A DNA stretch of 64,000 bases from Dehalococcoidia bacterium (GTDB lineage Bacteria; Chloroflexota; Dehalococcoidia; Lucifugimonadales; JAGWBF01), in contig OZ244780.1 of the NCBI GenBank assembly GCA_965219565.1, forward strand, positions 479,765-543,764, given 5' to 3'. Below, piece after piece: positions 2,227-8,300 of the stretch. Under the pieces are notes generated by a model that was not told where the DNA came from, searched no databases, and was given only the letters and a program-made list of their open reading frames with translations. How positions within the stretch are numbered: position 1 is the first letter of the stretch; the number at the start of each line of letters is the position of its first letter. The position numbers and the translations under genes are program-made.

Positions 2227-2302
2227 CCCTCACCCCAGCCCTCTCCCAGGGGGAGAGGGTGCACCTGTCCCTTCCCCTTCCGGGGGAAGGTTAGGATGGG
2301 GG
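2227..2302. repeat. BoxC-like composite palindrome (unit A 2227-2259 + inverted unit B 2267-2302)
   Basis: ccctcaccccagccctctccc-agg-gggagaggg, 7-nt spacer, gtcccttcccc...ggggaaggttaggatggggg; same architecture as 6635-6718. Confidence 0.85.
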
Positions 2303-5569: not shown

Positions 5570-5603
5570 CCCTCACCCCAACCCTCTCCCACGGGGAGAG
5601 GGA
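5570..5603. repeat. Solo BoxC-like palindrome (unit A)
   Basis: ccctcaccccaaccctctccc-acg-gggagaggga. Confidence 0.85.
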
Positions 5604-5644
5604 GTTCACAAAGCTCTTGCAAGGGACAACGGGCGGAACTTTCA

Positions 5645-6592
5645 TCATGCCGCCAGCTTGGGCCGGACCTCGTTGACGAACCGCTCCATGTTGTCCAGCT
5701 TGGCCTGGAGCGTGTCGCCGGGGAAGCCCATGCGGTAGTGGCCCACGCCAATATCCTGGTACCGCTTCAGGTCGTCGGCGATTTCCTGAGGGGTTCCTGT
5801 AAGAGGCCACCGTTCCCCGTTGCCTTTTCGCTCGTAGTCGACCTCGCAGGAGAAGGCCAGTTCCACGTCGTCCCTAGGTCGTCCTGCTTTCTCCGTCAGG
5901 TCCCTTAGCTCACCAATCTTCTTGGCCAACTCGTGGGGAGGGAACAGATCGGGAGGCCTGGCGCCGATGGGAATCCAGCCGTCACCCAGGCGAGCCGCCC
6001 GTCTGATGGCCGGAGGCGTGTTGCCTCCAACCCAGATGGGCACTCCGGGTTTCTGCGCGGGTTTCGGATAGAACTTCAGGTCCGAGAATTTGACGAAATC
6101 GCCGTCGTATTCAGGGTTGTCGTTGCTCCACAACTCTCGAAAGACCTTAATGAACTCGTCGGTGACCTTGCCTCGCTGCCGGAAGGTGTCCAGCCCAAGG
6201 GCGACAAACTCCTCTTCCATCCAGCCTACTCCGATGCCCAGAATCACCCTGCCGCCGGAAAAGTAGTCGATGGTGGAGATTATCTTTGCCGCCAGCACAG
6301 CCGGCCTGTAGGGAATCACCAGAACGCCAGTGCCGAACTTTATGCGTGAAGTGGCCCCGGCCATGAAAGCCATGACCGTCAGCGGGTCGCTGTACGGCTG
6401 CTCTACGACAAACCTGGGGACTCCGGTGGCAGAGTAAGGGTAGCGAGGAGCAACGGTGTTGGGAAGAATGACGTGGTCGCTGAACCATGCATGCTCGAAG
6501 CCCATCTCCTCGGCTTTAACGACCTGGGTCTTCATCTCCTCCGGGGTGAACAGAGGGTTGCCCCGGTTCGGTATAACACATCCGAAATTCAT
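5645..6592 (-). CDS. LLM-class (probably F420-dependent) oxidoreductase
   Basis: WFSDHV, DPLTVMAFMAGATSRIKFGTGVLV, GIGVGWMEEEF, PIWVGG, RAARLGDGW. Confidence 0.92.
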   Translation of the reverse strand: MNFGCVIPNRGNPLFTPEEMKTQVVKAEEMGFEHAWFSDHVILPNTVAPRYPYSATGVPRFVVEQPYSDPLTVMAFMAGATSRIKFGTGVLVIPYRPAVLAAKIISTIDYFSGGRVILGIGVGWMEEEFVALGLDTFRQRGKVTDEFIKVFRELWSNDNPEYDGDFVKFSDLKFYPKPAQKPGVPIWVGGNTPPAIRRAARLGDGWIPIGARPPDLFPPHELAKKIGELRDLTEKAGRPRDDVELAFSCEVDYERKGNGERWPLTGTPQEIADDLKRYQDIGVGHYRMGFPGDTLQAKLDNMERFVNEVRPKLAA

Positions 6593-6634
6593 CCTTCTCC
6601 TCCAATAGTCTTGCCCTGCGCTCAGGATCCTTTG

Positions 6635-6718
6635 ATCCCCCTCATCCTAACCTTCTCTCGCCAGGGGAGAAGGGACTTATGCTCCCTCTCCCTTGACGGG
6701 AGAGGGCTGGGGTGAGGG
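6635..6718. repeat. BoxC-like composite: unit B 6635-6676 + inverted unit A 6683-6718
   Basis: atccccctcatcctaaccttctctcgccaggggagaagggac followed by ccctctcccttgacgggagagggctggggtgaggg. Confidence 0.9.
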
Positions 6719-7057
6719 TGGGCGCACCATTTCCAACTCGCCCAGGAGGGCTTCCTGCACCGAAACAGGTTCGTTCAAGACTTGATTGTTCCAGAATCTG
6801 ATTACTCTAAATCCCTGACAAGTCAACCATTTCGTACGTTCGCTGTCGTACCCCTCACGAGTCAGATGGTGTCCGCCGTCCAACTCAACAATCAGCCAAT
6901 TCTCTAAACACACGAAGTCTACAACGTATGGGCCTATGGGGACTTGCCTGCGGAATTTTCGGTCTGCAAACTGACGGTTTCGCAAAAGCGACCACATACG
7001 CCTTTCCGCGTCGGTGGAATCCTTTCTAAGTTGGCGAGCCTTGGATGCGCTGCTCAT
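6677..7057 (-). CDS. DUF559 family (Vsr-like) endonuclease
   Basis: ARQLRK.ST.AE..MW..LR.RQ, KFRRQVPIGPYVVDFVC, IVELDGGHH, D.ERT.WL...GFRVIRFWN. Confidence 0.93.
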   Translation of the reverse strand: MSSASKARQLRKDSTDAERRMWSLLRNRQFADRKFRRQVPIGPYVVDFVCLENWLIVELDGGHHLTREGYDSERTKWLTCQGFRVIRFWNNQVLNEPVSVQEALLGELEMVRPPSPQPSPVKGEGA

Positions 7058-7099
7058 ATCCCCCTCATCCTAACCTTCTCCCGCCAGGGGAGAAGGGAC
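7058..7099. repeat. BoxC-like unit B, 41/42 identical direct repeat of 6635-6676
   Basis: atccccctcatcctaaccttctcccgccaggggagaagggac; abuts the DUF559 ATG and supplies its RBS (GAGGGGGAT-ATG). Confidence 0.9.
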
Positions 7100-7112
7100 G
7101 GCCGCCGCGTCC

Positions 7113-8300
7113 CTACGCCACAACCCCCTCCGCGTACATGGCGGAAATCTCTTTGTCGGTGTATCCGACCTCCGCCAGCAGCTCCCTGGTGTGCTGACCC
7201 AGAGTTGGTGCAGGCGCCGGAGCGAGCCGGGCGATGGGCTCTGAGAAGTCCCACGGGATGTCCAGCGTACGGTATCTTCCGACCACCGGGTGCTCCAGTT
7301 CGTGGACCATCTCCAACGCTTCCACCTGCGGGTGGTTCATCAGCGAGTCGAAGGTGTTCATCCTGACTATAGTGGCCCCCATGCCCCTGGCCAGCTTCTC
7401 CAGGTCATCGAAGGTCCAGTCCGCCAGCGCCGCCGCCATCTCTTCCCGGATGGTGGGCATCCAGTTAAGCCGCTTGGCAAAGCTGTTATAGAGGGGGTTG
7501 TAGGCGACTCCGTCGGCGCCCACGGCCAAGCAGAACTGCTTCCATTCTTCCTCCACCCGCCCCATGTCCAGCAGAAAGTTGGCATCCTTGCAGCGGAACC
7601 CGTGGTCGGGGGGTTCGGTGTACCCGGCGAGTTGCTTCCCCTTCCATTCGTCAGGGGCAGACTCGGCGGCTGTGGCCCACTGCATTAGGTTGACCGCCGC
7701 ATCCAGCAACGAAGTCTCCACATACTGTCCGAGACCCGTCGCTTCCCGCTCCATTATGCCTATGACCACAGCCTGAGCGGCGGCCCATCCGGCGTTCTCC
7801 GACACCACGTCGAACCCCACGCGCAGAGGCGGCTCATCTGCGCGGCCTAGATGCCGGTACTTTCCGATAATGGCCTGCACGTCAAGCTCCGTGGCGGGAT
7901 GTTCGGCCATTGGTCCCTGGCTTCCCATCCCTGATACTGAACAGTAGATGAGGCCCGGGTTCACTGCCGACAGGTCGTCATAGCCCAGCCCCAAGTCGTC
8001 CATGGCGCCTGGACGGTAGCCCTCGATGAAGGCGTCGGCGCCCTGGACCAGCCTGACCAGGGCGTCTCTGCCAGCCGGAGATTTCAGGTCCAGGCAGATC
8101 CCGCGTCGGTTCCTGTTCAGGCGGATGAACAGAGAGCTTTCTCCGTTCTCGAAGGGGCCAATCTGTCGGAGCCAGTCACCCTTGGTCGGCTCGACCTTGA
8201 TAATCTCGGCCCCCAGGTCTCCCAGCATCATGGACCCCAAAGGCCCAGAGACGCCCTGAGAGACATCTACAATTCTTATTCCTTCCAGAGCCAGGGGCAT
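7113..8300 (-). CDS. Family III (CaiB/BaiF) CoA-transferase subunit
   Basis: LEGIRIVD..., LGDLGAEIIKVEP..GD, NRNRRGICLDLK, APTLGQHT. Confidence 0.92.
   Translation of the reverse strand: MPLALEGIRIVDVSQGVSGPLGSMMLGDLGAEIIKVEPTKGDWLRQIGPFENGESSLFIRLNRNRRGICLDLKSPAGRDALVRLVQGADAFIEGYRPGAMDDLGLGYDDLSAVNPGLIYCSVSGMGSQGPMAEHPATELDVQAIIGKYRHLGRADEPPLRVGFDVVSENAGWAAAQAVVIGIMEREATGLGQYVETSLLDAAVNLMQWATAAESAPDEWKGKQLAGYTEPPDHGFRCKDANFLLDMGRVEEEWKQFCLAVGADGVAYNPLYNSFAKRLNWMPTIREEMAAALADWTFDDLEKLARGMGATIVRMNTFDSLMNHPQVEALEMVHELEHPVVGRYRTLDIPWDFSEPIARLAPAPAPTLGQHTRELLAEVGYTDKEISAMYAEGVVA

Follow-up and report, generated by a model that had tools for sequence, protein, structure and literature searches.

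Organization of the DUF559 Locus

The DNA analyzed here, hereafter called the window, is a stretch of 64,000 nucleotides (nt) from a 3.18-Mb Dehalococcoidia genome (G000). Between positions 6635 and 7099 it carries a small gene for a protein of the DUF559 family, the ends of which are formed by palindromic repeats of the BoxC type, also known as PIT or intrastrand triplex motif (TM) repeats (table 1). An earlier inspection of the letters alone, to which we refer as the original prediction, had seen in this region a nuclease cassette bounded to the base by direct repeats. We read the region instead as one copy of a recurrent unit, which consists of an inverted TM, a small DUF559 gene and a forward TM that makes up the gene's 3' end.

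The anatomy first described proves exact. Two 42-nt copies of a repeat called B, identical at 41 of 42 positions, lie at 6635-6676 and 7058-7099, and the DUF559 open reading frame (ORF) fills the gap between them to the base, the complement of its ATG ending at 7057, next to 7058, and its TAA beginning at 6677, next to 6676. The core of the B hairpin, 23 nt long, has two matches in the window with at most three mismatches, versus none in 100 dinucleotide shuffles. An inverted palindrome, repeat A, encodes the tail of the protein (PSPQPSPVKGEG), with the last 13 codons and the stop codon of the ORF lying in or at this repeat; a spacer of 7 nt, AGCATAA in gene orientation, contains the stop codon and leads from A to the second B copy, so that the layout B-ORF-A-7 nt-B is confirmed. 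The hairpin part of the TM repeats folds at -6.6 to -10.7 kcal/mol (-10 kcal/mol for the upstream B copy as single-stranded DNA), while the plus strand of 6630-6725, which contains the convergent B/A pair (6639-6718), folds into one hairpin of about 40 bp at -23.6 kcal/mol (z = -3.1) that resembles a REPIN.

The final bases of the upstream B copy (GAGGGGGAT before the ATG) are a plausible ribosome-binding site. At other loci the distance from the 5' repeat to the start of the match is 15-113 nt, and a ribosome-binding site supplied by the repeat is therefore not a general feature. No sigma-70 promoter was found in 6400-7300, where two weak terminator-like sites lie away from the repeats, and a search against Rfam returned only sub-threshold look-alikes of microRNA hairpins (34.6 bits vs. 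a gathering score of 74).

The Repeat Family and Its Copies in the Genome

Repeats of the BoxC, PIT or TM kind have been on record since the 1990s and are present in hundreds of bacterial genomes, where they are unusually constant in sequence; we know of no account of their origin, their function or the enzyme that mobilizes them. According to the main text of the survey by Holder et al. (2015; PMC4666352), TMs can be found in over 260 genomes, in which tens to hundreds of copies are dispersed in intergenic DNA, often as inverted pairs; in each, a pyrimidine block is followed by its mirror image, a short loop and, as complement, a block of purines, a triplex is formed in vitro for the repeat TMECO, and the repeats are linked to local instability. 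The same main text describes no flanking consensus for TMs, states that remnants of transposases or integrases are never found nearby and contains no occurrence of DUF559. The repeats studied here share with those of the survey (PMC4666352) the three-block build, intergenic dispersal, inverted pairs and a link to local rearrangement, and differ from them in that they form the ends of DUF559 genes and keep their mirror symmetry across at least three stem subtypes.

A regular expression for the TM (pyrimidine block, spacer, pyrimidine stem, loop, then purine stem) gives 126 copies in G000, as against two DUF559 genes. They fall into at least three stem subtypes: A (22 copies) and D (69 copies) share the stem CCCTCTCCC, B has the stem CCTTCTCCC (22 copies) and C the stem CCTTCCCCC (13 copies). 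In 105 of the 126 copies, and in every subtype, the first block, read in reverse, and the stem of that copy agree at 8 of 9 positions; the mean match is 7.75, versus 7.18 (maximum 7.33) in 1000 partner shuffles. A mirror-image first block combined with stem, loop and purine arm is the signature of BoxC/PIT/TM repeats. The resemblance to BoxC that had been noticed from the start is borne out by comparison by eye with the BoxC copy downstream of ycjD in Escherichia coli K-12, which has all three blocks: CCCTCACCC, CCCTCTCCCC and the purine arm.

Twelve divergent neighboring TM pairs lie less than 700 nt apart in G000, three of them with gaps above 300 nt, and two of these three enclose the two DUF559 genes. 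Direct arrays of three and four D-type TMs in the same orientation, 9-55 nt apart, are found on contig C1 at 2740873-2741057 and 2748133-2748304; outside them, the repeats of G000 are solitary or in inverted pairs. Eight composites of the form B(reverse)-about 48 nt-A(forward) resemble the ends of the cassette. The idea that these composites derive from the cassette by internal deletion found no support: by Smith-Waterman comparison their spacers match the gene no better than shuffled sequences do (p 0.12-0.91, 8/8).

The DUF559 Proteins of the Genome

DUF559 is a very large family and, to our knowledge, hardly any function has been assigned to it. The assignment of the window protein is secure: it matches PF04480 with E = 2.5e-40 and 137.2 bits (cut-off 20.6), over profile positions 3-108 of 109, and its closest solved relative is PDB 3hrl (E = 2.8e-22). 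Four residues, D47, E58, D60 and H64, are invariant across 32 aligned sequences, and we take them to correspond to the catalytic residues of Vsr. Vsr, DUF559 and the homing endonuclease I-Bth0305I have been placed in a single clade (Steczkiewicz et al. 2012; PMC3424549). With Vsr and Vsr-like DUF559 repair nucleases such as Caulobacter VsrA our proteins have the fold clade and the conserved acidic and histidine residues in common. The window protein is unlike Vsr in several respects: the Vsr model TIGR00632 of NCBIfam does not match it, and gives its paralogue in G000 16.2 bits against a cut-off of 97.85; no cytosine methyltransferase gene is adjacent; and embedding in repeats is not described for Vsr. 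Two genes for C5-methyltransferases (PF00145) are present in G000, at C1:7585-8460 and C1:1166894-1167880, each a long way from either DUF559 gene. Pairs of Vsr-like and methyltransferase genes that are not linked do occur, for example in Caulobacter, where the DUF559 protein VsrA is reported to be functionally linked to an unlinked methyltransferase, and a DUF559 protein to cause DNA damage in vivo (PMC12907096).

The best NCBIfam match is PRK09767, the equivalog model of E. coli YcjD, with 110 bits for the window protein and 116 for the paralogue, both below the cut-off of 218. Pfam finds no transposase domain in the window protein, only DUF559 and a sub-threshold match to MTES_1575, and does not identify it as an HUH Y1 transposase of the IS200/IS605 kind. 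Among the PADLOC models for defense systems none matches the window protein; the homing-endonuclease model of PADLOC matches the paralogue at 1.2e-6.

G000 has two DUF559 genes only, by tblastn and by the Pfam model run over six frames. The second, at C1:401365-401724, encodes a protein 45% identical to that of the window and lies between two inverted C-type repeats, with its stop codon within the 3' repeat. Both genes thus show the same order in gene orientation: reverse TM, gene, forward TM.

Association of DUF559 Genes with TM Repeats across Genomes

Fifty loci with relatives of these proteins (40-95% identity) were collected from Chloroflexota, Pseudomonadota, Thermodesulfobacteriota and other phyla. 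The peptides used in the search covered the domain core and GELEMVRP, which stands just before the repeat-coded tail, and not the tail itself (tblastn scores could include the tail). A strict, orientation-aware detector was applied to the flanks, counting a reverse TM within 150 nt upstream and a forward TM at or after the 3' end. Reverse TMs were found upstream in 30 of the 46 loci with enough flanking sequence, forward TMs at or past the 3' end in 34/50, and TMs on both sides in 28/46. The background is very low: in 215,251 nt of sequence at distances above 400 nt from the gene there are 23 oriented TMs, equivalent to about 0.009 expected per flank window. The enrichment of repeats around DUF559 homologues, which the original prediction had made a point of reference, is therefore present, and the data support the conclusion that DUF559 is tied to BoxC-type repeats much more closely than chance would allow, both in G000 and over several phyla.

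The junction of gene and repeat can be followed also in the proteins. Among the best 120 of 3106 homologue clusters, the tail carries P[SPHT]P in 99, and 76 of the 120 show also a G[ERG][GRE] motif there; a stricter pattern is found in 48 of the 120. The repeat-coded tail is read in one frame throughout the alignment (A1), which indicates that the junction is old. In other Chloroflexota, several DUF559 matches are found also inside open frames of 850-1700 residues, for example at G139:C8:294365-294733 and G287:C2:829527-829838, which may be either long fusion proteins or cassettes inserted in frame.

Within a locus, the 5' and 3' TMs are often of the same subtype, forming terminal inverted repeats, and the subtype varies by lineage. 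In the evaluable genomes the flank subtype is mostly the one that is commoner among the dispersed copies, the counts of stems CCCTCTCCC versus CCCTCCCC being 104 versus 17 in G331, 13 versus 40 in G334, 2 versus 19 in G341, 29 versus 2 in G345 and 52 versus 2 in G000. A strict co-evolution of subtype with the protein tree, a check that the original prediction had suggested, was not supported. The tree has 37 rows including the two G000 proteins; 13 of the 50 loci were excluded for an internal stop or fewer than 85 residues, these being drawn from L006, L007, L008, L011, L012, L014, L015, L028, L041, L042, L048, L049, L051 and L052, minus those that passed. Subtype changes on it 14 times, versus a mean of 20.4 in shuffles (0/200 as low), a clustering of labels that is expected from relatedness alone, and subtypes flip between near-identical proteins.

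At the level of whole genomes, we examined 301 Chloroflexota, including the unpublished G038 and G227, scoring DUF559 as a match at E <= 1e-8. Canonical TMs are present in 78/90 genomes with DUF559 and in 68/211 of the others, and at least ten copies in 54/90 versus 29/211; related genomes are not independent in these counts, and when taken by family the split is 29/38 versus 7/31.

The association reaches E. coli K-12, in which ycjD, a DUF559 gene, ends in ...TCACCCTCTCCCTGA, the stop codon falling within a degenerate TM hairpin, and a canonical BoxC follows about 170 nt downstream. YcjD thus ends like the proteins of G000, which score below its equivalog cut-off; it differs in that no TM is found upstream of the K-12 gene. 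Just past the gene, with the degenerate TM on one side and the canonical BoxC on the other, a segment of about 45 nt (K-12 locus L065, NC_000913.3, about 7330-7390, minus strand) repeats the 3' part of the ycjD coding sequence (GGAGACGGTGCTGGAGAATATTC...CTGAACCG) and looks like a remnant of a second 3' end.

History of the Locus and Turnover of the Repeats

Five congeners were compared, namely G000 and four genomes of the same genus (G301, G302, G303 and G304). The window DUF559 gene lies between the same two neighbors in all five, and no empty allele is thus available here; an empty site between the luciferase-like monooxygenase (LLM) and CoA-transferase genes had been considered in the original prediction and is seen in none of the four congeners, while more distant genomes are not syntenic at this locus. 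The part common to the congeners is a core of B(reverse)-gene-A(forward), with the upstream B copy kept in 5/5. The second B copy, by contrast, is present in G000, G303 and G304 only; G301 and G302 lack it and about 27 nt besides, the gene staying put. Direct B copies as the boundary of a cassette were consequently rejected, and the second copy is an optional extra repeat rather than the limit of the unit. In G302 and G304 there is an additional B-spacer-A composite upstream.

The window gene is vertically inherited and under purifying selection, with dN/dS values of 0.15-0.21 at dS 0.45-0.99 and a dN/dS of 0.45 in the closest pair, where changes are few. Two of the orthologues are damaged, that of G301 (L056), its only small DUF559 gene, by an in-frame TAA near codon 38 and that of G302 (L055) by ATA in place of the start ATG; since both otherwise show the same low dN/dS, the damage looks recent. 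A broad count of TMs gives 78, 90 and 65 where the gene is intact, versus 53 in the genome with the ATA start and 35 in the one with the in-frame TAA, a trend that with n = 5 is suggestive of fewer TMs where DUF559 is damaged.

Around the gene, the dispersed repeats turn over. Of the congeners, only G000 and G304 have the TM pair at 2227-2302, which G301, G302 and G303 lack, and at site 5570 the congeners carry a D repeat (G000, G302), a B+A pair (G303), a degenerate copy (G301) or a C-type repeat together with another palindrome (G304). Four repeat states at one site in five congeners suggest that repeats were exchanged again and again at a fixed position and not inserted at random.

The history of the second cassette is different, for it is a lineage-specific gain that is insertion-polymorphic. 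It is absent in 4/4 congeners, where about 60 nt with a hairpin rich in GC take its place between the same pair of convergent genes. G000 replaces this segment by about 510 nt, consisting of about 65 nt, C(reverse), the gene, C(forward) and about 45 nt.

We looked also for traces of excision, since the original prediction had proposed a circle with an A-spacer-B junction, by aligning to positions 5600-8300 the contigs of four public runs (X3, X5 and X9, of unstated kind, and X22, a metatranscriptome library). No credible excision or circle junction was found in these contigs, which break at repeats. Joints from 6720 to 7059 occur in all four runs, with sides of 21-37 nt and filler letters, features that identify them as A-spacer-B composites of other loci. 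One contig of X22, 3999 nt long, contains in one piece the LLM, DUF559 and CoA-transferase genes of a relative with about 90% identity, without the extra B copy; it is no proof of transcription and may derive from DNA carry-over.

The genes around the window copy, for the LLM, a family III CoA-transferase and a UvrD-like helicase, have no evident functional link with it. Table 1 lists the features of the region.

Table 1. Repeats and Gene of the DUF559 Locus and Other TM Repeats in the Window
Feature	Position	Strand	Remarks
Convergent TM pair	2227-2302		D-type 2227-2259 (+), C-type 2269-2302 (-); presence varies among congeners
D-type TM repeat, solitary	5570-5602	+	Intergenic, with the start of the UvrD-like helicase gene on one side and the stop of the LLM gene on the other; repeat type varies among congeners
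Repeat B, second copy	6635-6676, core 6639-6673	+	Optional extra; with A, a convergent REPIN-like pair; polymorphic among congeners
DUF559 gene, Vsr-fold, PD-(D/E)XK-like nuclease, 126 aa	6677-7057	-	PF04480 match
Repeat A, BoxC/TM-type	6684-6718	-	Stem CCCTCTCCC, loop GTCAA; forward in gene orientation; overlaps the 3' end of the ORF; 3' terminal repeat
Repeat B, BoxC/TM-type, upstream copy	7058-7099, core 7062-7096	+	Adjoins the DUF559 start; inverted with respect to the gene; terminal repeat on the 5' side of the conserved unit

A Possible Partnership of Nuclease and Repeats

In evolutionary terms, these observations raise a question: Why should a gene of low copy number have its ends built from a repeat that is scattered over the genome? 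A precedent is the REP/REPIN-RAYT system, in which inverted copies of a genome's dispersed palindromic repeat enclose a vertically inherited gene of low copy number. REPIN doublets fold into long hairpins, the repeats persist after loss of the RAYT gene, and RAYTs are reported to be kept under purifying selection. We favor a comparable partnership between a low-copy, vertically inherited and selected gene for a Vsr-fold nuclease and the dispersed TM repeats, while giving it slightly less than an even chance. The features in common are the inverted flanks made of a dispersed repeat, at both G000 genes and at 28/46 loci elsewhere, and low copy number, vertical inheritance and purifying selection (5/5 congeners, dN/dS 0.15-0.21); repeat doublets that form long hairpins, and repeats that outlast the gene in some genomes, are shared as well. 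The analogy with REP/RAYT drawn in the original prediction is supported by the layout, an inverted repeat pair around a low-copy gene with about 126 dispersed copies; a cassette bounded by the direct B copies is not supported.

The differences are equally clear. Unlike RAYTs, the protein is a DUF559/Vsr-fold nuclease and not an HUH Y1 transposase, and so has no strand-transfer chemistry of its own; unlike REPs, TMs have a triplex-type mirror block beside the hairpin, and their consensus is near-uniform across phyla rather than species-specific; and the repeat subtype is not strictly tied to the enzyme. The unit also differs from insertion sequences (IS) and miniature elements of the MITE type in having no transposase domain and no target-site duplications at three polymorphic sites.

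In the mechanism that we propose, the nuclease would recognize a TM folded out of the duplex, as a hairpin or an intrastrand triplex on transiently single-stranded DNA, and would nick at the folded repeat; repair that copies from another TM would then replace, add or remove repeats at intergenic sites. The same breaks would occasionally carry the gene with its flanking repeats to a new site or host.

Several points weigh against this partnership. By the strict detector, 18/46 loci are without a TM pair, and some alphaproteobacterial and other clades have none. Canonical TMs are missing in 12/90 DUF559-positive Chloroflexota genomes, and at least 20 of them are present in 20/211 negative ones. 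When the Pfam model was run again on five such negatives, no match appeared in three genomes, which are 93-97% complete and have 70, 59 and 52 TMs; of the other two, one has a weak match inside a frame of 2143 residues and one several partial copies. The flank subtype is not the dominant one in G343 and G348, which go the opposite way to the genomes listed above, and the near-identical proteins of L023, L024 and L026 have different 3' subtypes, switches that argue against tight specificity of enzyme for subtype. Such flanks are moreover not exclusive to DUF559, as the third divergent TM pair of G000 with a gap above 300 nt encloses a Rieske-type ORF. No target-site duplication is seen at the polymorphic sites (this locus, the TM sites and the second cassette), and comparison with the four congeners reveals no clean insertion boundary at the TM sites or the second cassette. 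Finally, binding and cleavage of a TM, by any DUF559 protein, are steps that we infer, as is the copying step; a nuclease alone cannot transpose DNA, so that copying would rely, by pure inference, on host repair.

The Rieske-type ORF just mentioned is ferredoxin-like, encodes about 108 residues and lies between inverted D-type TMs at C1:961144-961739; inside its flanks there is a second kind of palindromic repeat (..ATACCGGC..GCCGGTAT..).

Alternative Explanations

Two other explanations deserve consideration, and we regard each of them as improbable. The first sees in DUF559 a repair nuclease of the host and in the repeats mere bystanders: a Vsr-like nickase of T:G mismatches would serve the cytosine methyltransferases of the genome, with TMs accumulating in the short flanks, free of coding sequence, of a small gene that can be dispensed with, or acting there as its insulator or terminator. 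The two C5-methyltransferase genes of G000 fit such a role, even if neither is adjacent, and so do the vertical inheritance of the gene under purifying selection, the TMs around the unrelated Rieske-type ORF and the case of Caulobacter VsrA, a DUF559 protein tied to an unlinked methyltransferase (PMC12907096). A repair role leaves unexplained, however, the oriented pairs in 28/46 loci against about 0.009 per flank, the frame-locked tail in 99/120 clusters and the co-occurrence at genome level, and the Vsr model is unmatched by the window protein and reached by the paralogue with only 16 bits of the required 97.85.

The second is that TM-DUF559-TM is a selfish, homing-like cassette, which would be mobile by being copied in through repair after a cut, solo TMs and B-48 nt-A composites being its remnants or miniatures. 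The second cassette is absent in 4/4 congeners, with the segment of about 60 nt and its GC-rich hairpin in its place, so that one of the two cassettes of G000 is present or absent among close relatives; I-Bth0305I, a selfish gene with a Vsr-like catalytic fold, belongs to the same clade (PMC3424549), and the paralogue matches the PADLOC homing-endonuclease model. Relatives across phyla at 40-60% identity, terminal inverted repeats of the same subtype in many loci and the eight composites that mimic cassette ends are also in favor, and in E. coli ycjD is reported to occupy the sapF-fabI site exactly in strains without the eef operon (2026 paper; PMC12817139). Against homing stand the ratio of 2 genes to 126 repeats and the persistence of the window copy, whose single site is occupied in 5/5 congeners over a divergence of dS about 1 and which is under purifying selection; unlike I-Bth0305I, the window gene is free-standing (neither in an intron nor in an intein), bounded by repeats and stably inherited. 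The composite spacers have no significant similarity to the gene, and the insert at the second site is about 110 nt larger than TM-gene-TM and replaces host DNA without target duplication, which equally fits a transferred patch of recombination.

The explanation first put forward, an excisable cassette bounded by the direct 42-nt B copies and leaving as a circle with an A-spacer-B junction, has very little left in its favor: the B copies touch the ORF ends to the base at 41/42 identity, and a reverse TM just past the 3' forward TM is found also in L003, L004, L021, L024, L028, L031, L032 and L037, but the downstream B is missing in G301 and G302 with the gene retained, the site is occupied in 5/5 congeners, the 6720-7059 joints are short-sided with filler and no recombinase gene is adjacent.

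Implications for DUF559 and the TM Repeats

The repeat and the protein family are both known, while the link between them is absent from our literature search, which found no paper connecting DUF559 or ycjD with BoxC, PIT or triplex repeats; the supplementary lists of TM loci in PMC4666352 might name ycjD. New here are also the history of the locus within a genus, the estimate of selection, the co-occurrence at phylum level together with the cases that depart from it, the site found empty of the paralogous cassette and the rejection of the direct repeats as a boundary. The partnership of nuclease and repeats could be extended further: DUF559 might be the enzyme behind BoxC/PIT/TM repeats from E. 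coli to Dehalococcoidia, a candidate structure-specific nickase that would recognize the repeat in its folded form, hairpin plus triplex, and would generate, exchange and spread the repeats by break-induced copying, a generalization that we find rather doubtful.

On the practical side, the link would bear on annotation, since thousands of proteins have repeat-coded tails of the PSPQPSPVKGEG type, and on metagenome assembly, since contigs break at these repeats. In broader terms, the oriented association across phyla merges two puzzles, that of the enzyme of TM repeats and that of the role of DUF559 proteins. If DUF559 is indeed the enzyme behind these repeats from E. coli to Dehalococcoidia, this would explain the genomic instability reported at BoxC sites and would constitute a second, RAYT-independent class of replicators, composed of an enzyme and its repeats and nested in bacterial chromosomes.

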